Virus genome (UHGV): UHGV-0206243
Origin: a virus
Length of the DNA stretch: 13,605 bases
Strand: one strand, 5' to 3'
Each line of letters begins with the position of its first letter. Position 1 is the stretch's first letter. The notes beneath the pieces are model-generated. The model worked only from the letters and a program-made list of their open reading frames with translations, was not told the origin of the DNA and made no database searches. This document shows, piece by piece, positions 64-12,142 of this stretch. The translations under genes and the position numbers were made by a program.

Positions 64-1449
64 TTGGAGTCATTACCTGATACTCTGAGAAGAGAAACTT
101 TAGAATCATTTGCTATGATTATGCGATTCACTATACAGACAGTAAAAAATAATGATGAGTTGGTCGCGAAGGCCAATAATTTGATAAATGAATCTTTGAA
201 TGCTATTGTTAATTTTGATGAGTTTGAGGAGGCTAAATTAAATATTATTGCTGATAAATTGTGCCAGTTGATTATGCTTTTTAGAGATGCTGGCAATAAT
301 ATTATGTTTAGCCGGGCGACCTCAGAAAACTTACGCAGATTTATATATGAATGCCCATTGAAGAGAATCAAAGATTGCCTAACTAAAGTTGTTTCTATTT
401 CAGGAAATAAATTGTCTGCATCTAAAATAAGTTATGACTTCAGATATGATAAAAATAAAGGTGTGGTAAAGGTTTCGAGATTTGTTCTTCTAAATAAGAA
501 TGATGAAAGAATAGTTGAGCTGTTACCCAAAAAGAATAATGTCGTTGTATTGTCGGATGTTATCCCTCAAGAAGTATTTAGAGGATGTAAGTCTGATATC
601 TTAGAAATCATGAATCCTTATTCTTTGGGGCTATTCCCTGTCAATGAAGGACGTGGTTTTTATGTTTTTTTTGGAAATTCCTACAACCCTGTTGTTAACT
701 TTTTGTCACATGTTGTTTCTCTGGGAGTATTAATGCTTTCAAAAATGTTTGATGGCGAAAATGTTAATCATGTCAGCCCGTTGAGGGCATTTCCTCAGCG
801 TTATTATTTATTAGATAAAACAGTCAATCATGCTCAGTTAAATTCTGCTGATGGCTCTGAGTTGGCGGAGATTCTGAAGAAAAATACAAAAATAACAGAA
901 AACATAAACCTTCTTCTCGCTGAATTTAACTTAGCGGTTGATATAGTTAGAGTTAATGACATAATTCATAAGATAGTTATAAACCAAGATGCTGTTAATT
1001 TAGAATTGACAGATGTAGGGTTTGGAATATCACAAGTGTTGCCTGTCTTGGTTCAAGCTTATTTGTCACCAAAGGGCTCGATTACAATAATAGAACAACC
1101 AGAAATACATTTGCATCCTAAAATGCAGGCATGGTTAACTGACGCATTAATTAAAATATCTATGCAAGAAAAGAAAATTTTTATTATTGAAACACATAGT
1201 GATGCATTAGTTAGACGGATTAGATTAAGAATTGTTGATGAATCAAGCGAACTTACTGAGGACCATGTGGCAATCTATCATCTTGAGCGAGATGAAGAGG
1301 GAACATCAACCTTACTAAATAGAGTGGCTGTGAATTCTGATGGAGATATCACATGGCCAAATGAGTTTATGGATGTTGAGATTCAGGATACAATTAGAAT
1401 ACAGGAATTAAAAATACAAAAAATAATGAACTCAAAGGGAGTTCATTGA
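64..1449 (+). CDS. Hypothetical ABC/SMC-type ATPase C-terminal-module protein (signature-like, Walker-B-like and H-loop motifs; no Walker A); candidate defence component
   Basis: 461-codon ORF in about one-third-GC DNA. C-terminus reads GFGISQVLPVL...ITIIEQPEIHLHP...IFIIETHSDAL, resembling the signature/Walker B/H-loop end of AAA_21/DUF3696-type ATPases. No GxxxxGK[ST] anywhere. Start is uncertain: TTG at 64 follows an in-frame stop at 46-48, first ATG is at 112, and no clear Shine-Dalgarno precedes either. Confidence 0.6.
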   Translation: MESLPDTLRRETLESFAMIMRFTIQTVKNNDELVAKANNLINESLNAIVNFDEFEEAKLNIIADKLCQLIMLFRDAGNNIMFSRATSENLRRFIYECPLKRIKDCLTKVVSISGNKLSASKISYDFRYDKNKGVVKVSRFVLLNKNDERIVELLPKKNNVVVLSDVIPQEVFRGCKSDILEIMNPYSLGLFPVNEGRGFYVFFGNSYNPVVNFLSHVVSLGVLMLSKMFDGENVNHVSPLRAFPQRYYLLDKTVNHAQLNSADGSELAEILKKNTKITENINLLLAEFNLAVDIVRVNDIIHKIVINQDAVNLELTDVGFGISQVLPVLVQAYLSPKGSITIIEQPEIHLHPKMQAWLTDALIKISMQEKKIFIIETHSDALVRRIRLRIVDESSELTEDHVAIYHLERDEEGTSTLLNRVAVNSDGDITWPNEFMDVEIQDTIRIQELKIQKIMNSKGVH

Positions 1450-1450
1450 T

Positions 1451-2452
1451 ATGCTTTGTGCTGTTTGTTTGTGTCCTGAATTTGTTGCTGCTAATATTTC
1501 TGATGTTAAAGTTTTTAGCGGTTTTTTTATTGAAACCATTGTTAATGGTGAAAATGAGTTGATTCTTGATGCTGATGGAAAAATTCGCTTAGGTTATTTA
1601 AAGTCTTGCGGAAACAACAAGGATTCTTTTTTGTTTTTTAAGAAGTGGGAGTCTGAGTTATCTAAAGCTCCTTCAGGCAAGATATTGCGTACACCAGTGC
1701 CGAATAGTTCTGAGGATATTAAGGATATAGTTGTTTGTGCAGTTGCTAATGCAGCCACTACTTTTGATAAGCATATCGTAGTGTTAGATAATAATAGTTA
1801 CTCTGGATATATTGATGAATTAATCAGGCAAAGGATTAATTTGTTAAATCTTAATAGTATAAGCTTAATATCAAAGGATGGTCGAGTGCAGCGTCCTTTG
1901 AATTTTATAAAGTTTGATAGTGATTTATCTTGGGTGCTTCAAAGATTGGGGCGTCGCTCTGCTAAAGGATATGGTGAAGATGATTTTAATGATTTTATAC
2001 GGGATATGTTATTAGCTAAGAATTATGAGGTAAAAGATCAAACTAGAGAGGGAGAGTCTCAATCTGGTAAAAGTGCGGGTGAATTAGATCTTGTTATTGA
2101 AGATAAAGGAAATCTATTTGCTATAATAGAAGCATTGATTTTAAAATCTCTAGATCAAGCTAACATATTAAAGCATTATTCAAAGCTAATTGGTAACTAT
2201 AATCCTATTAATGTTAAACGCTTGTTTTTAATTGCTTATTATACTGGTGCAAAATTTGATGCTTGGTGTGAGAGATACATTGATTATCTAAAAGAGATTA
2301 CTCCGGTAGATATTGGTGTAGAATCTCATGAGATAGTTGGGATTAAAGAAGTGGAGACTCCATATATAGGTTTGAGAAAAATTGAACATCATTTTAGATA
2401 TGCGGGAGAACATTATTTTTGTGTTCATTATGCAGTCAAGATGGCTCGGTGA
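1451..2452 (+). CDS. Hypothetical protein, putative effector partner (possible PD-(D/E)xK-like nuclease core)
   Basis: 333-codon ORF. Shine-Dalgarno AAAGGGAG sits about 10 nt upstream, inside the 3' end of the preceding gene, and the ATG is 2 nt after that gene's TGA. Segment GELDLVIEDKGNLFAIIEALILK resembles the beta-strand core of PD-(D/E)xK nucleases but is not canonical. AT-rich like its neighbour. Confidence 0.6.
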   Translation: MLCAVCLCPEFVAANISDVKVFSGFFIETIVNGENELILDADGKIRLGYLKSCGNNKDSFLFFKKWESELSKAPSGKILRTPVPNSSEDIKDIVVCAVANAATTFDKHIVVLDNNSYSGYIDELIRQRINLLNLNSISLISKDGRVQRPLNFIKFDSDLSWVLQRLGRRSAKGYGEDDFNDFIRDMLLAKNYEVKDQTREGESQSGKSAGELDLVIEDKGNLFAIIEALILKSLDQANILKHYSKLIGNYNPINVKRLFLIAYYTGAKFDAWCERYIDYLKEITPVDIGVESHEIVGIKEVETPYIGLRKIEHHFRYAGEHYFCVHYAVKMAR

Positions 2453-2464
2453 TGTTTAATATGA

Positions 2465-2490
2465 ATGCACCTATAGGGTGCATCATTTTG
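2465..2490 (+). terminator. Candidate intrinsic terminator after the cargo operon
   Basis: Inverted repeat ATGCACC / GGTGCAT around a 5-nt loop, followed by CATTTTG, starting 12 nt after the stop at 2450-2452. The T-run is short, so this is weak. Confidence 0.35.
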
Positions 2491-2589
2491 CATGTTTAAA
2501 TACGTTCTCTATGTATGTGCGCTAGGCTTGACTGGCGCGCTTGTACTATGTTTATGCAACTGCATTAAAACCGACCCATGAAGCGGGCG

Positions 2590-2608
2590 GGCGAGGCGGG
2601 GAAAGCAC
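2590..2608. other. cos: P2-type cos cohesive-end sequence
   Basis: GGCGAGGCGGGGAAAGCAC matches the 19-nt P2 cohesive end as I recall it, and it lies just beyond the 3' end of Q as in P2. Confidence 0.8.
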
Positions 2609-2750
2609 TGCGCGCTGGCGGTGGTGCTGATTTTATTTTTTCAGCGTCTGAGCGCGTCGTGATGGCGTTTGGATTGTTCGCCGGGGCGTTGGTGTGTATG
2701 CGGGCTGTTTTGTGCGGTGGTGAGCGTGTGAGGGCGTGATGACGGGGTGT

Positions 2751-2773
2751 AAAAAAGCCGCCCGCAGGCGGCG
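2751..2773 (-). terminator. Intrinsic terminator downstream of portal gene Q
   Basis: On the minus strand: GCCGCC-TGCG-GGCGGC hairpin followed by TTTTTT, a few nt after the Q stop at 2778-2780. Confidence 0.7.
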
Positions 2774-2777
2774 ATGT

Positions 2778-3812
2778 TCAGCCGTTGTCAGTGTCCAGTG
2801 AGTAGTTTTTAAAGCGGATGACCTCCTGACCGAGCCAGCCGTTTATCTCGCGGATCCTGTCCTGTAACGGGATAAGCTCATTGCGGACAAAGACCTTTGC
2901 CACTTTCTCAATATCACCCAGCGACCCGACGTTCTCCGGCTTGCCGCCCATCAACTGAAAAGGGATGCGGTGCGCGTCCAGCAGGTCTGCGGCGCTGGCT
3001 TTTTTGATATTAAAAAAATCGTCCTTCGTTGCCACTTCACTGAGCGGGATAATTTTAATACCGTCGGCTTTTCCCTGTGGGGCGTAGAGAAACAGGTTTT
3101 TAAAGTTGTTGCGGCCTTTCGACTTCACCATGTTTTCGCGAAGCATTTCGATATCGTTGCGATCCTGCACGGCATCGGTGACGTACATGATATATCCGGC
3201 ATGAGCGCCGTTTTCGTAATACTTGCGGCGGAACAGCGTGGCCGACTCATTCAGCCAGGCAGAGTTAAGGGCGCTGAGATATTCCGGCAGGCCGTACAGC
3301 TCCTGATTGATATCCGGCTCCAGCAGGTGAAACACGGAGCCGGGCGCGAAAGGTGTCGGCTCGTTGAAGGATGGCACCCACCAGTAAACATCCTCCTCCA
3401 CGCCACGGCGGGTATATTTTGCCGGTGAGGTTTCCAGTCTGATGACCTTACCGGTAGTGCTGTAGCGCTTTTCCAGAAACGCATTACCGAACACCAGAAA
3501 ATCCAGCACAAAGCGGCTGAAATCCTGCTGGGAAAGCCACGGATGCGGGATAAATGTCGAGGCCAGAATATTACGTTTGACGTAAATCGGTGAGCTGTGA
3601 TGCACGGCAGCACGCAGGCTTTTTGCCAGACCGGTAAAGCTGACCGGTGGCTCATACCATCTGCCGTTACTGATGCATTCGACGTAATCCAGAATGTCAC
3701 GGCGGTCGAGTACCGGCACCGGCTCACCAAAGGTGAATGCCTCCATTTTCGGGGCGCTGGTGGTCATTGTTTTTGCCGCAGGTTGCGGTGTTTTCCCTTT
3801 TTTCTTGCTCAT
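2778..3812 (-). CDS. Q: Capsid portal protein
   Basis: 344 aa, the length I recall for P2 gpQ. Sequence matches recalled P2 portal; its ATG overlaps the stop of the upstream terminase remnant. Confidence 0.92.
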   Translation of the reverse strand: MSKKKGKTPQPAAKTMTTSAPKMEAFTFGEPVPVLDRRDILDYVECISNGRWYEPPVSFTGLAKSLRAAVHHSSPIYVKRNILASTFIPHPWLSQQDFSRFVLDFLVFGNAFLEKRYSTTGKVIRLETSPAKYTRRGVEEDVYWWVPSFNEPTPFAPGSVFHLLEPDINQELYGLPEYLSALNSAWLNESATLFRRKYYENGAHAGYIMYVTDAVQDRNDIEMLRENMVKSKGRNNFKNLFLYAPQGKADGIKIIPLSEVATKDDFFNIKKASAADLLDAHRIPFQLMGGKPENVGSLGDIEKVAKVFVRNELIPLQDRIREINGWLGQEVIRFKNYSLDTDNG

Positions 3813-4774
3813 CAGTAAAACTCCAGAATGGTGGATGTCAGCGGGGTGCTGATACCGGCGGTGAGTGGCTCATTTAACAGGGCGTGCATGGTCGCCCAGG
3901 CGAGGTCGGCGTGGCTGGCTTCCTCGCTGCGGCTGGCCTCATAGGTGGCGCTGCGTCCGCTGCTGGTCATGGTCTTGCGGATAGCCATAAACGAGCTGGT
4001 GATGTCGGTGGCGCTGACGTCATATTCCAGACAGCCACGGCGGATAACGTCTTTTGCCTTGAGCACCATTGCGGTTTTCATTTCCGGCGTGTAGCGGATA
4101 TCGCGCGCGGCGGGATAGAACGAGCGCACGAGCTGGAACACGCCGACACCGAGGCCGGTGGCATCAATACCGATGTATTCGACGTTGTATTTTTCAGTGA
4201 GTTTGCGGATGGATTCCGCCTGGGTGGCAAAGTCCATGCCTTTCCACTGATGGCGCTCAAGTATTCTGAATTTGCCACCGGCCACCACCGGCGGTGCCAG
4301 CACCACGCATCCGGCGCTGTCGCCACGGTGTGACGGGTCGTAACCAATCCATACCGGGCGGGAGCCGAACGGATTGGTGGCAAACGGCGCGTAGTCTTCC
4401 CATTCTTCCAGCGTGTCGACCATGCAGCGTTGCAGCTCCTCGAACGGGAACACTGACGCCTTGTCGTCAACAAATTCACACATGAACAGGTTTTTAAAAT
4501 CGTCGGCGCTGTTTTCGCGTTTGAGCTGCTCAATGTCGAACAGCGTGCAGCCGCCTTTCAGCGCGTCCTCAATGGTGACAATCTGCCGCCACTGACCGTC
4601 CGCACAGAGAAGCCCACCGGCAAGAGCGTTATGACTGACGTCGATTTCCACGCGTTCGGCGGCGCTGGCGCGTCCCCGGTTGAACAGTTCACCCGACCAG
4701 AACGGGTAGGCGTCGTGCGCCAGCGTGGACGGGGTGGAGAAATAGGTCGAGCGCAGGTGACTCTGTGAGGCCAT
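3812..4774 (-). pseudogene. P: Terminase large subunit, C-terminal (nuclease-domain) remnant; N-terminal ATPase region deleted
   Basis: 320-codon ORF ending directly at the Q start, as in the P2 P-Q operon. Contains nuclease-domain-like segments (IGIDATGLGVGV, DPSHRGDSAGCVV) but no Walker A. Recalled P2 gpP is about 590 aa. The frame is closed by a stop at 4787-4789, right beside the lysB start. Confidence 0.8.
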
Positions 4775-4783
4775 ACCTGAACC

Positions 4784-5209
4784 ATGTCAAAGCTGATGAT
4801 TGTGCTGGTTGTGTTGTTATCACTGGCGGTGGCCGGTCTGTTTCTGGCGAAGCATGAAAACGCCAGCCTGCGCGCCTTGCTGGACAGGGCGAACAACGTC
4901 GCCAGTGAACAGCAGACGACCATCACCATGCTGAAAAATCAGCTTCATGTTGCCATCACCAGGGCAGACAAAAACGAGCTGGCGCAGGTGGCTCTGCGTC
5001 AGGAACTGGAGAACGCCGCGAAGCGTGAAGCACAGCGCGAGAAAACCATCACGAGATTACTCAATGAAAACGAAGATTTTCGCCGCTGGTACGGTGCTGA
5101 CCTGCCTGATGCTGTGCGCCGGTTGCACCAGCGCCCCGCCTGCACTGACGCCAGTGATTGTCGCCAACGCCTGCCCGAAAGTGAGTCTTTGCCCGATGCC
5201 GGGCAGTGA
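4784..5209 (+). CDS. lysB: Rz-like i-spanin LysB
   Basis: 141 aa with an N-terminal hydrophobic segment (MSKLMIVLVVLLSLAVAGLFL), matching recalled P2 LysB. Confidence 0.9.
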   Translation: MSKLMIVLVVLLSLAVAGLFLAKHENASLRALLDRANNVASEQQTTITMLKNQLHVAITRADKNELAQVALRQELENAAKREAQREKTITRLLNENEDFRRWYGADLPDAVRRLHQRPACTDASDCRQRLPESESLPDAGQ

Positions 5210-5354
5210 CCCGGAGACGAACGGCGATTTAAGTGCCGATATCCGGCAGCTTGAGAACGCGCTGGCACGCTGTGCCAGCCAGGTAAAAATGATTAAACAC
5301 TGTCAGGACGAAAACGATGCTCAAACCCGACAGCCTGCGCAGGGCGCTGACTGA
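5064..5354 (+). CDS. lysC: Rz1-like o-spanin lipoprotein LysC
   Basis: 96 codons in the +1 frame, starting inside lysB and running into R. Lipoprotein signal MKTKIFAAGTVLTCLMLCAGC. The track ORF starts upstream at 4947; the start at 5064 is chosen from the signal peptide. Confidence 0.8.
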   Translation: MKTKIFAAGTVLTCLMLCAGCTSAPPALTPVIVANACPKVSLCPMPGSDPETNGDLSADIRQLENALARCASQVKMIKHCQDENDAQTRQPAQGAD

Positions 5355-5784
5355 TGCCGTCACGGTGCTGAAAACCAGTCCAGAGATGCTGCGGATATTC
5401 GTGGATAACGGGAGTATTGCCTCCACACTGGCGACGTCGCTGTCATTCGAAAAGCGTTACACGCTCAATGTGATTGTGACCGACTTTACCGGTGATTTTG
5501 ACCTGCTCATCGTGCCGGTGCTGGCGTGGCTGCGGGAAAATCAGCCCGACATCATGACCACCGACGAAGGCCAGAAAAAGGGCTTCACGTTTTATGCGGA
5601 CATCAACAATGACAGCAGCTTTGATATCAGCATCAGCCTGATGCTGACCGAGCGCACGCTGGTCAGTGAGGTTGACGGCGCGCTGCATGTGAAGAATATC
5701 CCGGAACCACCGCCGCCGGAGCCGGTCACCCGCCCGATGGAGCTTTATATCAATGGTGAACTGGTGAGTAAGTGGGATGAATGA
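5317..5784 (+). CDS. R: Tail completion protein R
   Basis: 155 aa; matches recalled P2 gpR in length and sequence. Confidence 0.9.
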   Translation: MLKPDSLRRALTDAVTVLKTSPEMLRIFVDNGSIASTLATSLSFEKRYTLNVIVTDFTGDFDLLIVPVLAWLRENQPDIMTTDEGQKKGFTFYADINNDSSFDISISLMLTERTLVSEVDGALHVKNIPEPPPPEPVTRPMELYINGELVSKWDE

Positions 5785-6229
5785 GTTTAAGCGTTTTGAA
5801 GACCGGCTGACCGGACTGATTGAGTCGCTGTCACCATCAGGGCGTCGGCGACTGAGTGCCGAACTGGCGAAACGTCTGCGGCAGAGTCAGCAGCATCGTG
5901 TGATGGCACAGAAAGCCCCGGACGGCACCCCCTACGCGCCACGCCAGCAGCAGAGCGCCAGAAAAAAGACCGGTCGCGTTAAGCGAAAAATGTTTGCGAA
6001 ACTTATCACCAGTCGTTTTTTGCATATCCGCGCCAGCCCTGAACAGGCATCAATGGAGTTTTACGGCGGGAAGTCACCGAAAATCGCCAGTGTGCATCAG
6101 TTCGGTCTGTCGGAAGAAACCCGGAAAGACGGTAAGAAAATTGATTATCCGGCGCGTCCTCTGCTCGGCTTTACCGGTGAGGATGTGCAGATGATTGAAG
6201 AGATTATCCTGGCTCACCTCGACCGTTAG
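5777..6229 (+). CDS. S: Tail completion protein S
   Basis: 150 aa; matches recalled P2 gpS; overlaps the R stop. Confidence 0.9.
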   Translation: MNEFKRFEDRLTGLIESLSPSGRRRLSAELAKRLRQSQQHRVMAQKAPDGTPYAPRQQQSARKKTGRVKRKMFAKLITSRFLHIRASPEQASMEFYGGKSPKIASVHQFGLSEETRKDGKKIDYPARPLLGFTGEDVQMIEEIILAHLDR

Positions 6230-6230
6230 T

Positions 6231-6248
6231 TGTGCCATTCCCGACACA
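6231..6248 (+). promoter_or_regulatory. Candidate Ogr-dependent late promoter activator site (TGT-N12-ACA) upstream of V
   Basis: TGTGCCATTCCCGACACA is an exact TGT-N12-ACA dyad in the S-V intergenic gap, the form described for P2 late promoters. Its spacing to the V ATG at 6296 is tighter than I would expect. Confidence 0.45.
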
Positions 6249-6295
6249 TCATCGTTACATTGCCGCCGGTATGACCCGGAGGCATCCTTCCCGTT

Positions 6296-6931
6296 ATGAA
6301 CACTCTCGCAAATATCCAGGAACTCGCGCGCGCACTGCGCAACATGATTCGTACCGGCCTTGTCGTCGAAACCAACCTTAAAGCCGGTCGCTGCCGTGTG
6401 CAGACCGGCGGCATGTGCACCGACTGGCTTCAGTGGCTGACCCATCGCGCCGGACGTTCGCGCACATGGTGGGCACCTTCCGTGGGGGAACAGGTGCTGA
6501 TTCTGGCCGTGGGCGGTGAACTCGACACGGCGTTCGTTCTGCCGGGGATTTATTCCGGCGATAACCCCGCGCCGTCTGCGTCGGCGGATGCCCTGCATAT
6601 CCGTTTCCCTGACGGGGCGGTGATTGAGTATGAACCTGAAACCAGTGCACTGACGGTAAGCGGAATTAAAACGGCCAGCGTGACGGCTTCTGATTCTGTT
6701 ACTGCCACGGTGCCGGTGGTCATGGTGAAAGCGTCAACCCGCGTCACCCTGGACACACCGGAGGTGGTCTGCACCAACAGGCTGATTACCGGCACGCTGG
6801 AAGTACAGAAGGGTGGGACGATGCGCGGCAACATTGAACACACCGGCGGTGAACTCTCATCAAACGGTAAGGTACTGCATACCCATAAACACCCCGGCGA
6901 CAGCGGCGGCACAACCGGGAGTCCTCTATGA
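6296..6931 (+). CDS. V: Baseplate spike/assembly protein V
   Basis: 211 aa; matches recalled P2 gpV. Confidence 0.92.
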   Translation: MNTLANIQELARALRNMIRTGLVVETNLKAGRCRVQTGGMCTDWLQWLTHRAGRSRTWWAPSVGEQVLILAVGGELDTAFVLPGIYSGDNPAPSASADALHIRFPDGAVIEYEPETSALTVSGIKTASVTASDSVTATVPVVMVKASTRVTLDTPEVVCTNRLITGTLEVQKGGTMRGNIEHTGGELSSNGKVLHTHKHPGDSGGTTGSPL

Positions 6932-7275
6932 CAGCGCGTTATCTCGGAATGAATCGCAGTGATGGCCTGACTGTCACTGACCTTGAGCATATCAGCCAGA
7001 GTATCGGCGATATCCTGCGCACACCGGTCGGCTCACGGGTGATGCGTCGTGATTACGGCTCGTTGCTGGCGTCAATGATTGACCAGCCGCAGACTCCGGC
7101 GCTTGAGTTGCAGATTAAGGTCGCCTGTTACATGGCAGTGCTGAAATGGGAACCCCGCGTCACCCTGTCATCCGTCACCACTGAGCGCAGTTTTGACGGG
7201 CGAATGACGGTCACGTTAACCGGCCAGCACAACGACACCGGCCAGCCACTTTCGTTAACCATCCCTGTGAGTTGA
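6928..7275 (+). CDS. W: Baseplate protein W (gp25-like)
   Basis: 115 aa; matches recalled P2 gpW; GGGAG Shine-Dalgarno upstream; ATG overlaps the V stop. Confidence 0.92.
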   Translation: MTARYLGMNRSDGLTVTDLEHISQSIGDILRTPVGSRVMRRDYGSLLASMIDQPQTPALELQIKVACYMAVLKWEPRVTLSSVTTERSFDGRMTVTLTGQHNDTGQPLSLTIPVS

Positions 7276-7279
7276 AACC

Positions 7280-7384
7280 ATGCCGATTATCGACCTGAAC
7301 CAGCTACCCGCACCGGATGTGGTCGAGGAGCTGGACTTTGAAACCATTCTCGCCGAACGCAAGGCGACACTGATTTCCCTTTAA
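7280..7384 (+). pseudogene. J: Baseplate protein J, N-terminal 34-codon stub
   Basis: [34 protein letters not shown] matches the recalled P2 gpJ N-terminus, then hits TAA at 7382-7384 where sheath-gene sequence begins out of frame. Confidence 0.85.
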
Positions 7385-8193
7385 CCGGTGTTAAACCGCG
7401 TATTCTTGGTGTGCCGGGGCTGGATACCAAAGAGGTGGCTGTTGCACTGGCATCAGTCTGTCAGAAGCTGCGCGCTTTCGGGTATATCAGCGCATGGGGC
7501 TGTAAAACCATTTCCGAGGTGAAAGCCTACCGCCAGAATTTCAGCCAGCGTGAGCTGATGGTCATCTGGCCGGATTTCCTCGCATGGGATACAGTCAACA
7601 GTACCACCGCCACCGCGTATGCCACCGCCCGTGCGCTGGGTCTGCGTGCCAAAATCGACCAGGAGCAGGGCTGGCATAAAACGCTGTCCAACGTCGGGGT
7701 AAACGGTGTTACCGGCATCAGCGCGTCCGTATTCTGGGATTTGCAGGAGTCCGGTACCGATGCTGACCTGCTTAACGAGTCTGGCGTCACAACGCTGATT
7801 CGCCGCGACGGTTTCCGATTCTGGGGTAACCGTACCTGCTCCGATGACCCGCTGTTCCTCTTTGAAAACTACACCCGCACCGCGCAGGTGTTGGCCGACA
7901 CGATGGCTGAGGCGCACATGTGGGCGGTGGATAAGCCCATCACCGCAACGCTGATTCGCGACATCGTTGACGGCATCAATGCCAAATTTCGTGAGCTGAA
8001 AACAAACGGCTATATCGTGGATGCGACCTGCTGGTTCAGCGAAGAATCCAACGATGCGGAAACCCTTAAGGCCGGAAAACTGTATATCGACTACGACTAT
8101 ACACCGGTGCCTCCTCTCGAAAACCTGACCCTGCGCCAGCGTATTACCGATAAATACCTGGCAAATCTGGTCACCTCGGTTAACAGCAATTAA
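7384..8193 (+). pseudogene. FI: Tail sheath protein FI, C-terminal portion only
   Basis: Sheath-frame homology ([18 protein letters not shown]... to ...[10 protein letters not shown]) begins at about 7384; the track ORF starts at GTG 7411. About 260-270 codons remain of a recalled ~396-aa protein. No native start or promoter. Confidence 0.85.
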
Positions 8194-8205
8194 GGAGCCT
8201 GACCG

Positions 8206-8724
8206 ATGGCAATGCCGCGCAAACTCAAGTTAATGAACGTCTTTCTGAACGGCTACAGCTATCAGGGCGTTGCAAAGTCCGTCACGCTGCCAAAACTGAC
8301 CCGTAAGCTCGAAAACTATCGCGGTGCGGGGATGAACGGCAGCGCACCGGTAGACCTCGGCCTTGATGATGATGCGCTGTCAATGGAGTGGTCGCTCGGG
8401 GGCTTCCCGGATTCGGTTATCTGGGAGCTTTACGCCGCAACCGGCGTGGATGCCGTGCCGATTCGTTTTGCAGGCTCTTACCAGCGCGACGATACCGGCG
8501 AAACGGTGGCCGTCGAAGTGGTCATGCGTGGACGTCAGAAAGAAATCGACACCGGCGAGGGCAAACAGGGAGAAGACACCGAGTCGAAAATCTCCGTGGT
8601 CTGCACCTATTTCCGGCTGACGATGGACGGTAAGGAGCTGGTCGAAATCGACACCATCAACATGATTGAGAAGGTGAACGGCGTCGACCGGCTGGAGCAA
8701 CACCGCCGCAATATCGGCCTGTGA
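8206..8724 (+). CDS. FII: Tail tube protein FII
   Basis: 172 aa; matches recalled P2 gpFII; AAGGAG Shine-Dalgarno upstream. Confidence 0.92.
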   Translation: MAMPRKLKLMNVFLNGYSYQGVAKSVTLPKLTRKLENYRGAGMNGSAPVDLGLDDDALSMEWSLGGFPDSVIWELYAATGVDAVPIRFAGSYQRDDTGETVAVEVVMRGRQKEIDTGEGKQGEDTESKISVVCTYFRLTMDGKELVEIDTINMIEKVNGVDRLEQHRRNIGL

Positions 8725-8780
8725 TTTTCATCCGGTCAGCCTGGCTGACCGGTTAACACCGATTCAGAAGTGAGAAAACC

Positions 8781-9056
8781 ATGAACAAAGAAAATGTGAT
8801 TACCCTGGACAATCCGGTCAAGCGTGGTGAGCAGGTTATCGAACAGGTCACGCTGATGAAACCCAATGCCGGGACGCTGCGCGGTGTCAGTCTGGCTGCG
8901 GTCGCGAACTCTGAAGTCGATGCACTGATTAAGGTGCTGCCGCGCATGACGGCACCGATGCTGACCGAGCAGGAAGTCGCCGCGCTGGAACTGCCTGACC
9001 TTGTGGCGCTGGCCGGTAAGGTGGTCGGTTTTTTGTCGCCGAACTCGGTGCAGTGA
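8781..9056 (+). CDS. E: Tail assembly chaperone E
   Basis: 91 aa; matches recalled P2 gpE. Confidence 0.9.
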   Translation: MNKENVITLDNPVKRGEQVIEQVTLMKPNAGTLRGVSLAAVANSEVDALIKVLPRMTAPMLTEQEVAALELPDLVALAGKVVGFLSPNSVQ

Positions 9057-9208
9057 CGTTTCCGAAAAATCTCTCGGTCGATGACCTGATGGCAGATGTG
9101 GCTGTGATATTTCACTGGCCGCCATCAGAACTGTATCCCATGAGCCTGACCGAACTCATCACATGGCGCGAAAAGGCGCTCCGGCGAAGCGGAAACACGA
9201 ATGAGTAA
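8781..9208 (+). CDS. E': Tail assembly chaperone E+E' (programmed -1 frameshift product; slip site TTTTTTG at 9029..9035)
   Basis: I translated the -1 frame from the T6G slip site by hand: it is open to TAA at 9206-9208 and ends ...LTELITWREKALRRSGNTNE, about 142 aa in total, overlapping the T start. Confidence 0.8.
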
Positions 9209-11648
9209 CAATGTAAAATTACAGGTATTGCTCAGGGCTGTTGACCAGGCATCCCGCCCGTTTAAATCCATCCGTACAGCGAGCAAGTCGCTGTCGGGGG
9301 ATATCCGGGAAACACAAAAATCACTGCGCGAGCTGAACGGTCAGGCGTCCCGTATTGAGGGATTTCGCAAGACCAGTGCGCAGCTCGCCGTGACTGGTCA
9401 TGCACTTGAAAAGGCTCGGCAGGAAGCCGAAGCCCTTGCCACACAGTTTAAAAACACCGAACGTCCGACCCGTGCTCAGGCGAAAGTGCTGGAGTCCGCG
9501 AAGCGTGCGGCGGAGGACTTACAGGCGAAATATAACCGCCTGACGGATTCCGTTAAACGCCAGCAACGGGAACTGGCCGCTGTGGGAATTAATACCCGCA
9601 ATCTTGCACATGATGAGCAGGGACTGAAAAACCGTATCAGTGAAACCACCGCACAGCTTAACCGTCAGCGCGACGCGCTGGCGCGTGTCAGTGCGCAACA
9701 GGCAAAACTTAACGCAGTCAAACAGCGTTATCAGGCAGGCAAGGAACTGGCCGGAAATATGGCCTCGGTGGGCGCTGCCGGTGTGGGGATTGCGGCGGCG
9801 GGAACGATGGCCGGAGTTAAGCTGCTGATGCCCGGTTATGAGTTTGCGCAGAAAAACTCAGAATTGCAGGCCGTGCTCGGTGTGGCAAAAGATTCCGCCG
9901 AAATGGCCGCGCTACGCAAACAGGCGCGCCAGCTCGGCGACAATACCGCCGCCTCGGCGGATGATGCGGCCGGTGCGCAGATTATTATTGCGAAAGCCGG
10001 TGGGGATGTTGATGCCATTCAGGCGGCAACGCCGGTCACGCTGAACATGGCGCTGGCGAACCGCCGCACGATGGAAGAAAACGCCGCCCTGCTGATGGGG
10101 ATGAAATCCGCCTTTCAGCTTTCAAACGATAAGGTCGCTCATATCGGGGATGTTCTCTCCATGACGATGAACAAAACCGCCGCCGATTTTGACGGCATGA
10201 GCGATGCGCTGACCTATGCCGCACCTGTGGCAAAAAATGCCGGTGTCAGCATTGAAGAAACCGCCGCGATGGTCGGGGCGCTGCATGATGCAAAAATCAC
10301 AGGCTCAATGGCGGGGACGGGAAGCCGTGCCGTGTTAAGCCGCCTGCAGGCACCGACGGGAAAAGCATGGGATGCACTCAAAGAGCTTGGAGTGAAAACC
10401 TCAGACAGCAAGGGAAACACCCGGCCAATATTTACCATTCTGAAAGAAATGCAGGCCAGTTTTGAGAAAAACCGGCTCGGTACTGCCCAGCAGGCTGAAT
10501 ACATGAAAACTATTTTCGGGGAGGAGGCCAGCTCAGCCGCCGCCGTGCTGATGACTGCCGCCTCAACCGGAAAGCTGGACAAACTGGCCGCTGCGTTTAA
10601 AGCCTCAGACGGAAAGACCGCAGAGCTGGTAAATATCATGCAGGACAACCTCGGCGGTGACTTTAAGGAGTTTCAGTCCGCTTATGAGGCGGTGGGGACT
10701 GACCTGTTTGACCAGCAGGAAGGCGCACTGCGTAAGCTCACGCAGACGGCCACAAAGTATGTGTTAAAACTCGACGGCTGGATCCAGAAAAACAAATCAC
10801 TGGCGTCAACCATCGGCCTTATTGTCGGTGGTGCACTGGCGCTGACTGGCATCATCGGTGCAATTGGTCTTGTAGCCTGGCCGGTTATCACCGGCATCAA
10901 TGCCATCATCGCGGCAGCAGGCGCAATGGGGGCAGTCTTCACGACGGTTGGCAGTGCTGTTATGACGGCCATCGGGGCGATTAGCTGGCCGGTTGTGGCC
11001 GTGGTGGCCGCCATTGTCGCCGGGGCGTTGCTTATCCGTAAATACTGGGAGCCTGTCAGCGCATTCTTTGGCGGTGTGGTGGAAGGGCTGAAAGCGGCAT
11101 TTGCGCCGGTGGGGGAACTGTTCACGCCACTTAAGCCGGTGTTTGACTGGCTGGGCGAAAAGTTACAGGCCGCGTGGCAGTGGTTTAAAAACCTGATTGC
11201 CCCGGTCAAAGCCACCCAGGACACCCTGAACCGTTGCCGTGACACGGGCGTCATGTTCGGGCAGGCACTGGCTGACGCGCTGATGCTGCCGCTTAATGCG
11301 TTCAACAAACTGCGCGGCGGTATTGACTGGGTACTGGAAAAACTCGGCGTCATCAACAAAGAGTCAGGCACGCTTGACCAGACTGCCGCCAGAACTCATG
11401 CCGCCACGTATGGCACCGGTGGTTATATTCCGGCGACCAGCTCTTATGCTGGCTATCAGGCTTATCAGCCAGTTACGGCACCGGCTGGCCGCTCTTATGT
11501 GGACCAGAGTAAAAACGAATATCACATCAGCCTGACGGGGGGTACTGCGCCGGGGACACAGCTTGACCGCCAGTTACAGGATGCGCTCGAAAAATACGAG
11601 CGGGATAAACGTGCGCGCGCCCGTGCCAGCATGATGCATGACGGTTAA
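9201..11648 (+). CDS. T: Tail tape measure protein T
   Basis: 815 aa; coiled-coil-like N-terminal region and a Gly/Ala-rich hydrophobic C-terminal region; matches recalled P2 gpT. Confidence 0.92.
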   Translation: MSNNVKLQVLLRAVDQASRPFKSIRTASKSLSGDIRETQKSLRELNGQASRIEGFRKTSAQLAVTGHALEKARQEAEALATQFKNTERPTRAQAKVLESAKRAAEDLQAKYNRLTDSVKRQQRELAAVGINTRNLAHDEQGLKNRISETTAQLNRQRDALARVSAQQAKLNAVKQRYQAGKELAGNMASVGAAGVGIAAAGTMAGVKLLMPGYEFAQKNSELQAVLGVAKDSAEMAALRKQARQLGDNTAASADDAAGAQIIIAKAGGDVDAIQAATPVTLNMALANRRTMEENAALLMGMKSAFQLSNDKVAHIGDVLSMTMNKTAADFDGMSDALTYAAPVAKNAGVSIEETAAMVGALHDAKITGSMAGTGSRAVLSRLQAPTGKAWDALKELGVKTSDSKGNTRPIFTILKEMQASFEKNRLGTAQQAEYMKTIFGEEASSAAAVLMTAASTGKLDKLAAAFKASDGKTAELVNIMQDNLGGDFKEFQSAYEAVGTDLFDQQEGALRKLTQTATKYVLKLDGWIQKNKSLASTIGLIVGGALALTGIIGAIGLVAWPVITGINAIIAAAGAMGAVFTTVGSAVMTAIGAISWPVVAVVAAIVAGALLIRKYWEPVSAFFGGVVEGLKAAFAPVGELFTPLKPVFDWLGEKLQAAWQWFKNLIAPVKATQDTLNRCRDTGVMFGQALADALMLPLNAFNKLRGGIDWVLEKLGVINKESGTLDQTAARTHAATYGTGGYIPATSSYAGYQAYQPVTAPAGRSYVDQSKNEYHISLTGGTAPGTQLDRQLQDALEKYERDKRARARASMMHDG

Positions 11649-11662
11649 GGAGGTGACGAAAA

Positions 11663-12142
11663 ATGATGCTCGCGTTAGGTATGTTTGTTTTTATGCGCCA
11701 GACGCTGCCACACCAGACCATGCAGCGTGAATCAGATTATCGCTGGCCGTCAAATTCCCGTATCGGTAAACGGGATGCCTTTCAGTTTCTCGGTGTTGGC
11801 GAGGAAAACATCACGCTGGCCGGTGTGCTTTATCCCGAACTGACCGGCGGCAAGCTGACGATGACCACGCTCAGGCTGATGGCAGAGGAAGGTCGGGCGT
11901 GGCCGTTGCTGGATGGTACCGGCATGATTTACGGCATGTATGTCATCAGTAAGGTGAGTGAAACAGGGAGTATTTTCTTTGCAGACGGCACACCCCGAAA
12001 AATTGATTTTACGCTGTCGCTCACCCGCGTTGATGAATCACTGGCCGCGCTTTATGGCGATATCGGTAAACAGGCGGAATCGCTCATCGGTAAGGCTGGC
12101 AGTATGGCGACTAAATTCACGGGTATGACGGAGGCGGGATAA
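11663..12142 (+). CDS. U: Tail protein U
   Basis: 159 aa; AAGGAGG Shine-Dalgarno upstream; matches recalled P2 gpU. Confidence 0.9.
   Translation: MMLALGMFVFMRQTLPHQTMQRESDYRWPSNSRIGKRDAFQFLGVGEENITLAGVLYPELTGGKLTMTTLRLMAEEGRAWPLLDGTGMIYGMYVISKVSETGSIFFADGTPRKIDFTLSLTRVDESLAALYGDIGKQAESLIGKAGSMATKFTGMTEAG

Follow-up and report, generated by a model that had tools for sequence, protein, structure and literature searches.

Menshen and HEC-03 are the described defence systems that most resemble the locus reported here. Menshen (Millman 2022; Li et al. NAR 2025, PMC12065111) comprises NsnA, a ParB-DUF262 protein, NsnB, an ABC ATPase with a DUF3696 tail, and NsnC, in which an inactive PIN domain (inPIN) is joined to a variable nuclease; 15 C-terminal effector families are reported for NsnC (BECR, Toprim and PLD among them), and paired DUF3696 tails of NsnB are predicted to clamp the inPIN domain of NsnC (PMC12065111). 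The survey of this system was seeded on NsnA, so that pairs lacking NsnA lay outside its scope (PMC12065111). HEC-03 is a validated two-gene defence system of an ABC ATPase and a PIN protein, for which both genes are required and which is toxic on induction (10.1101/2024.01.29.577857). For PARIS, deletion of either gene was non-toxic (Rousset 2022). In phage P2, the stretch from gene A to the portal gene is a hotspot for defence genes (Vassallo 2022; Rousset 2022). The subject of this report is a two-gene cassette that lies in this interval in the UHGV virus genome UHGV-0206243, a stretch of 13,605 nucleotides that is referred to as the window in the following; the cassette pairs a gene for an ABC-type ATPase of 555 residues with a gene for a putative nuclease effector, ORF333, and its copy in the window is interrupted by the insertion sequence (IS) IS1.

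The pair, under the names ORF555 and ORF333, was presumably first described in a paper by Odegrip from 2006 on the variable locus of P2. It is deposited for phage P2-EC5 from strain ECOR5 (AM157364), and Table S5 of Rousset et al. 2022 lists it among the P2-encoded loci as "AAA_15/AAA_21 + hypothetical" (WP_024249463 and WP_024249462); the starts of its protein and DNA sequences are absent from the tables of tested systems in the same study. No functional study of the two proteins was found in the literature searched, and an earlier note on this DNA, which had been made from the sequence alone, was therefore right to call the pair uncharacterised: it has been listed as P2 cargo in Rousset 2022, but untested, and no experimental characterisation was found. 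The locus is thus already catalogued, and the kinship of its ATPase with known systems is clear; neither the effector family nor its C-terminal domain is annotated, and both are widespread.

We consider it likely that the intact cassette is a rare, mobile two-gene candidate anti-phage system, carried as cargo at the tin/old hotspot of P2, and that the window holds an inactivated copy of it. The earlier note had proposed a candidate anti-phage system for the pair as it stands in the window; this remains plausible, though unvalidated, for the intact cassette, but the IS1-broken copy itself is unlikely to be active.

Position of the cassette and insertion of IS1

Two open reading frames (ORFs) are found on the plus strand at the left end of the window, at positions 64–1449 (461 codons, TTG start) and 1451–2452 (333 codons). 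A single base separates them (TGA at 1447–1449, ATG at 1451), with the motif AAGGGAG upstream at 1435–1441, and the ATPase gene and ORF333 are predicted from this arrangement to be translationally coupled. The GC content of positions 1–2550 is 0.29–0.37, compared to 0.49–0.63 in the remainder of the window, except for the final ~500 bases (0.44–0.46). The 19-mer GGCGAGGCGGGGAAAGCAC, which we take to be the cohesive-end (cos) sequence of P2, occurs on the plus strand at 2590–2608 as a single exact match, with none in 200 shuffles. It is the right boundary of the tin/old hotspot, and Rousset Table S2 has the same motif in its P4 sequences. Beyond it, the hotspot is flanked by the P2 portal gene Q on the minus strand (2778–3812), which is 98.9% identical to the region annotated as phage portal protein in the P2-like prophage of Escherichia coli E308; in intact relatives, P2 gene A lies directly upstream of the cassette. 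The cassette is hence located between gene A and cos/portal, i.e. in the tin/old hotspot. These data bear out the description in the earlier note of an AT-rich, coupled plus-strand pair just left of cos, at the old/tin position of P2, and they support its view that the pair is horizontally acquired cargo with a GC content well below that of the phage genes. The gene upstream, for which a role as a component of the cassette had been considered, does not belong to it; in intact prophages it is P2 gene A.

Positions 1–77 of the window (plus strand) represent the right end of IS1 with its terminal inverted repeat, ...AAGTTGGAGTCATTACC. Over these 77 nt the sequence is 100% identical to IS1 in more than 5000 plasmids, where the annotation reads IS1 family transposase. 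Positions 78–2560 are 100% identical to the prophage of E. coli E308, in which the first gene is intact and, with 1668 nt, codes for an "AAA family ATPase" of 555 aa (WP_024249463). In the alignment, the match to this intact gene begins at base 78, the final base of codon 99, and the window retains the 3' part of the ATPase gene at 78–1449 (plus strand), i.e. the last base of codon 99, codons 100–555 and the stop codon. The TTG at position 64 and the residues MESLP that follow from it (TTG plus the next four codons) are IS1 sequence. Because the IS1 end occupies 1–77 and identity to the gene starts only at 78, the first ORF is a 5'-truncated pseudogene and not a complete gene, and a gene that begins at 64 does not exist; the true gene is cut after codon 99.

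The insertion also accounts for the apparent loss of the Walker A motif. The residues removed (1–99) include LLGANSCGKS at 26–35, with the motif GANSCGKS at 28–35 of the intact protein; Walker A is missing from the window because these residues lie beyond the IS1 insertion, and the statement that the protein has no Walker A was an artefact of an insertion that had been overlooked. What looked like an exotic loss of a catalytic motif is, in this window, the mark of an IS1-inactivated pseudogene copy. The truncated ORF has kept the GFG signature (1018–1026), the Walker B motif IIEQPE (1087–1104), the His of the H-loop (1195–1197) and the C-terminal helix (~1381–1434). The promoter of the ATPase gene is not within the window. 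As IS1 has removed codons 1–99, with Walker A, and the promoter, the cassette is very probably non-functional in this window.

The window opens inside IS1 and includes only the terminal 77 nt of the element. The first 297 nt of the ATPase gene, together with any target-site duplication, must be located beyond the other end of IS1, outside the window. The junction between IS1 and the ATPase gene was found on one metagenome scaffold, but on none of the complete E. coli genomes in the collection.

The ATPase and the effector

The full-length ATPase matched the Pfam families AAA_15 (7.6e-25) and AAA_21 (2.2e-17), both above threshold. Among the PADLOC profiles, the best match was to NsnB of Menshen (2.3e-51, reaching position 338 of 345 of the profile), followed by the model named HEC-03B (5.2e-43, 145.7 bits), PDC-M55A (4.7e-41) and AriA (3.3e-28); matches to GajA, PtuA (1e-8 to 1e-10) and, over a short stretch, PD-T4-4_A (5.4e-9) were weak. 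The PADLOC model "HEC-03B" (PDLC04148, 458 positions) matches the ATPase; in the HEC preprint, the ATPase is designated HEC-03A and the PIN protein HEC-03B, and the A and B names appear to be swapped between PADLOC-DB and the preprint.

Across 52 family members, Walker A, the signature D-V-G-F-G-I-S-Q, the Walker B region I-E-Q-P-E-x-H-L-H-P and the H-loop are invariant. An AlphaFold2 (AF2) model of a protein with 94% identity to the E308 ATPase (P0200; mean predicted local distance difference test score, pLDDT, 83.7; predicted template modelling score, pTM, 0.84) comprises the ABC core together with a helical insert of ~120 aa (roughly residues 93–211) and a terminal helix at 534–551. No TOPRIM match was found in the ATPase with Pfam and PADLOC profiles, and a single helix ends the protein after the ABC core. 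Judged by these profile matches, the product of the first gene can be classified as an OLD/SMC-class ABC ATPase of the NsnB/HEC-03-like type. The earlier note could not match either protein to a family; for the ATPase this has to be revised in view of its matches to AAA_15/AAA_21, NsnB, HEC-03, PDC-M55A and AriA, and for ORF333 it still applies, as no family was found.

The effector gene is intact in the window (1451–2452, plus strand) and corresponds to ORF333 (WP_024249462). An AF2 model computed from 49 sequences (pLDDT 86.4) has two domains, an N-terminal PIN-like domain (residues 1–140; 1451–1870, plus strand) and a C-terminal domain with a restriction-endonuclease fold (residues ~150–333; ~1898–2449, plus strand). 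In the N-terminal domain, the position of the catalytic Asp of strand beta1 in PIN domains is taken in this family by a C-x-C-P motif (C6, C8 and P9 conserved), and D40 is the only invariant acidic residue, which falls short of the four-acid catalytic set of PIN domains; the domain is therefore probably PIN-like but non-catalytic.

The core of the C-terminal domain is ordered in the model as helix 176–189, strand 193–195, strand 214–218, strand 221–231, helix 236–249 and strand 257–264, which is the alpha-beta-beta-beta-alpha-beta order of the PD-(D/E)xK superfamily. Eight residues (D213, E227, K245, E211, D196, Q197, R199 and E200) are invariant in this domain in the 49 sequences; D213 is placed at the start of strand beta2, E227 on strand beta3 and K245 on the helix that follows. 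Both folds of ORF333 are modelled with confidence; the C-terminal domain is a putative PD-(D/E)xK-type nuclease, for which catalysis would proceed through a relocated lysine, K245. Identity within the family is ~60% for the core of the C-terminal domain and ~40% for the N-terminal domain. Profile searches and the modelled fold agree with the observation in the earlier note that the pair contains neither TOPRIM nor HNH, and profiles and modelled folds likewise support the general logic that it had suggested, an ABC ATPase paired with a nuclease.

A word-indexed search recovered only 53 clusters for ORF333, all of ~333 aa and from Enterobacterales and Pseudomonas. A full profile search recovered 1108 cluster representatives (50% clustering) at E < 1e-3, most of which match only residues ~140–331 of ORF333. 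The homologues of this domain (e.g. P0075, P0095, P0109, P0147, P0161 and P0086) include proteins in which it is fused C-terminally to Roc-COR/LRR GTPases, to an nSTAND3 NTPase or to a pentapeptide-repeat protein; no Pfam family covers the domain in the fusion proteins that were examined. Stand-alone homologues are encoded inside a type I restriction-modification locus (L016) and beside Schlafen/TIR genes (L017). On the basis of these sequences, the C-terminal domain is best viewed as a mobile module with the usual signature of an effector domain of conflict systems. The partial gene upstream of the stand-alone homologue in the restriction-modification locus was tested as a possible ATPase tail, which it is not.

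The two-gene family and competing explanations

In all loci examined, the ORF333 homologue is encoded directly downstream of an ATPase of the same type (539–604 aa), with the genes overlapping or separated by 1–12 nt, except for the PGAP annotation in Vibrio, which has a 52-nt gap. These loci were found in Pseudomonas veronii (adjoining AlpA-type island genes), in a member of the Budviciaceae (chromosomal), in Enterobacter roggenkampii, Pseudomonas fluorescens and Shewanella, on a plasmid of Vibrio coralliilyticus (27% identity), and on Salmonella and E. coli contigs, of which one has an IncFII repA gene next to the pair. Furthermore, E. coli GCA_044695805.1 (L010, 1987–4689) carries a divergent allele in the same P2 hotspot (portal to gene A) in opposite orientation, with 48% identity for the ATPase and 42.5% for its partner. 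Across the pairs, divergence is correlated (41–51% identity for the ATPase, 33–45% for the partner), and the conservation of the pair with such correlated divergence indicates a stable two-gene family and not a recent loss of a gene.

A second disrupted copy was observed in Enterobacter roggenkampii GCA_019584245.1, where an IS1-like left-end remnant with an ORF for the InsA zinc ribbon (L007, 4640–4774) abuts an ATPase gene truncated to 410 aa, and the ORF333 homologue downstream is intact. Here, an IS element has disrupted the ATPase gene independently of the window copy, in another genus and at a different position. Metagenome contigs with the same allele break ~250 nt upstream. The repeated disruption by IS elements may be a sign that the intact system is costly to fitness.

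A mechanism for the intact cassette can be drawn by analogy to the predicted NsnB–NsnC complex and to the solved complexes of Septu and PARIS. The defence phenotype, the complex of ATPase and effector, the trigger and the substrate are inferred, whereas the data show the gene structure, the truncation by IS1, the folds, the conserved residues, the strict synteny of the two genes in many contexts and the homology of the ATPase to defence ATPases that have been validated. An oligomer of the ATPase would hold the effector via its PIN-like domain, using the C-terminal helices, and would sense a phage cue, perhaps through the helical insert; ATP binding or hydrolysis would then release or activate the nuclease, which would cut nucleic acid, so that the infection stops. 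A more specific and tentative interpretation, which we hold with somewhat less than even confidence, is that the intact cassette represents a relative of Menshen and HEC-03 that has no name yet and no sensor gene, in which the insert of the ATPase senses infection and controls an effector made of a dead PIN and a restriction-endonuclease domain, with the latter being a widespread conflict module and the IS disruptions a sign of the cost of carriage.

Several results weigh against a defence system with an active nuclease. ORF333 gave no match to Pfam, NCBIfam (noise only) or PDB sequences, and a PDB search with the 49-sequence profile returned nothing; similarly, none of the 49 family members was matched by any PADLOC model, including those for NsnC and for the HEC-03 partner. 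The canonical Lys of the (D/E)xK motif is replaced by Met or Leu at position 229, and an inactive, DNA-binding restriction-endonuclease fold is a possible alternative for the C-terminal domain. For the ATPase, the match to Pfam DUF3696 is sub-threshold (12.7 bits, cut-off 22); relatives with 41–45% identity to it do carry this domain (PF12476). Finally, no phage-resistance experiment on the family was found in the literature searched.

An ATP-dependent, restriction-type nuclease (McrBC/type IV-like), which would directly recognise and cut foreign, e.g. modified, DNA and would not be an abortive-infection toxin set free by a trigger, is an unlikely explanation of the pair. No methyltransferase and no recognisable DNA-reading domain is present; the nearest relatives of the ATPase (NsnB, HEC-03, AriA and PtuA) regulate a bound toxin in their systems, and the PIN-like domain suits the role of an adaptor.

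Less probable still is a role of the pair in stabilising the prophage, as a toxin-antitoxin or addiction module with a nuclease toxin restrained by the ATPase. The match to AAA_21, which Pfam lists as a putative toxin (AbiEii) from a type IV toxin-antitoxin system, would fit this explanation, as would the toxicity of HEC-03 when induced and the translational coupling of the two genes. The pattern of disruption speaks against it: in two independent lineages (IS1 in the window, and Enterobacter roggenkampii) the ATPase gene is disrupted and the nuclease gene intact, and a constitutive toxin neutralised by the ATPase should not survive the loss of the ATPase, unless it is unexpressed. Moreover, either gene of PARIS can be deleted without toxicity.

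That the pair is a degenerate three-gene Menshen system which has lost its sensor gene, NsnA (ParB-DUF262), is suggested by NsnB as the best match of the ATPase and by the NsnC-like layout of the effector, with a PIN-like domain followed by a nuclease. No NsnA/DUF262 gene flanks the pair in nine loci from six or more genera, from Escherichia to Vibrio, nor on ten E. coli contigs, and the upstream gene in P2 is gene A; in addition, the correlated divergence of the conserved pair points to a stable family and not to a recent loss, and the restriction-endonuclease fold is outside the 15 effector families reported for NsnC. We regard this origin as very improbable.

The least probable explanation, a ligand-gated nuclease of the Can2/Card1 type with a CARF-like, Rossmann-like N-terminal domain that binds a nucleotide second messenger, draws on the best Foldseek match of the ORF333 model in the PDB (Can2, E 2.3e-3, probability 0.60, with nothing at E <= 1e-3) and on a match to the CARF_PDDEXK model (0.0076) as the sole PADLOC signal of ORF333.

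The carrier prophage and comparison with described systems

Compared to E. coli E308 (locus L003), the window consists of three blocks: positions 78–4780 correspond to 20001–24703 of that locus, 4779–7388 to 30425–33033, and 7382–11747 to 38119–42483. Two clean deletions lie between the blocks. The first (5.7 kb) extends from terminase P (N-terminal half) past lysA to the first bases of lysB, and the second (5.1 kb) covers most of baseplate gene J, then I, H and G, and ends within the 5' part of the sheath gene. Overlaps of 2 nt and 7 nt and no IS are seen at the junctions (~4779–4780 and ~7382–7388). In total, about 10.8 kb of morphogenesis genes have been lost, and the carrier prophage is decaying. 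The ORFs at 3812–4774 and 7411–8193 are truncation or fusion products. Since the operon is broken and the prophage has two internal deletions, the window copy is unlikely to be active.

Proteins identical to ORF333 occur widely in assemblies. In all of the ten places shown, the protein is accompanied by the intact ATPase of 555 aa, encoded directly downstream of gene A. The portal gene follows the cassette in nine of the ten; in the remaining carrier (L022), baseplate gene J comes directly after ORF333 as the result of a deletion. On an E. coli contig with an identical ORF333 (L028), the terminase is shortened to 163 aa, with an integrase next to it on the far side. In these two carriers, the cassette seems to outlive the morphogenesis genes of its phage.

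The terminator scan of the plus strand predicted two hairpins in the region of the cassette. A terminator-like hairpin (2465–2483) that with its T-rich tail occupies 2465–2493, 13 nt past the ORF333 stop codon, is the probable end of the cassette transcript. The other, a 10-bp stem-loop at 1424–1448, spans the Shine-Dalgarno sequence of ORF333 and the stop codon of the ATPase gene (minimum free energy –12.7 kcal/mol, z = –4.0 against shuffles). It was considered as a conserved coupling device and rejected, being absent from eight other family members; for this reason it was left out of the mechanism, and it is probably allele-specific.

Should the intact cassette prove protective, a further entry would be added to the catalogue of the P2 tin/old hotspot, for a pair that has been on record since the deposition of AM157364, and a name could be given to an effector domain that is missed by the Pfam, PADLOC and NCBIfam profiles and is found in more than 1000 clusters, including ROCO and STAND NTPases.

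In comparison with the described systems, membership in PD-T4-4, Septu, Gabija, Lamassu, PARIS and OLD was rejected, since the effector does not match. PD-T4-4 and HEC-02 (Vassallo 2022; Ragucci 2025 preprint) resemble the cassette as operons of an NTPase and a PD-(D/E)xK protein on E. coli mobile elements; however, the match to PD-T4-4_A is short, and the effector matches neither PD-T4-4_B nor the NERD model of HEC-02. In Septu, PtuB contains an HNH domain, which the partner in the cassette lacks, and the matches of the ATPase to PtuA are weak. In OLD (P2 Old) and GajA, the nuclease is a fused TOPRIM domain, whereas it is a separate PD-(D/E)xK protein in the cassette; unlike in Gabija, no helicase gene is located beside the cassette in E308. 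PARIS (Rousset 2022) shares with the cassette an ABC ATPase (AriA) with a separate nuclease, the location in P4/P2 hotspots and the logic of a scaffold that releases an effector; however, the cassette is devoid of the DUF4435/TOPRIM protein AriB (no match, and a different fold), and the similarity to AriA is confined to the ABC core.

HEC-03 has the same two-gene form, and its ATPase profile is matched by the cassette ATPase, although with a moderate score, so that the latter is related to HEC-03 without being a close member. The partner in HEC-03 is described as a VapC-like PIN protein, whereas ORF333 is without the catalytic Asp of strand beta1 and carries a restriction-endonuclease domain; none of the 49 ORF333 family members matched any HEC-03 model at E <= 1.

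For Menshen, the likeness comprises both proteins: NsnB is the best profile match of the ATPase, both ATPases have GxG instead of SGG and a Walker B motif that is not of the DE type, the model of the cassette ATPase ends in a C-terminal helix as in NsnB, and ORF333 is predicted to have the layout of NsnC, a probably dead PIN-like N-terminal domain with a putative C-terminal nuclease. The cassette differs in that the defining sensor gene for NsnA (ParB-DUF262) is not next to it in the loci examined, in the restriction-endonuclease fold of its effector, which is not among the 15 families of NsnC C-terminal domains, in the extra ~120-aa helical insert of its ATPase with Pfam DUF3696 remaining sub-threshold, and in that ORF333 does not match the PADLOC model for NsnC. 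If the cassette is protective, the principle of Menshen and HEC-03, in which an ATPase clamps a toxin-bearing, PIN-like adaptor, would gain a two-gene form with a DNA-type PD-(D/E)xK effector, and this would bear on whether systems of this kind target RNA or DNA.

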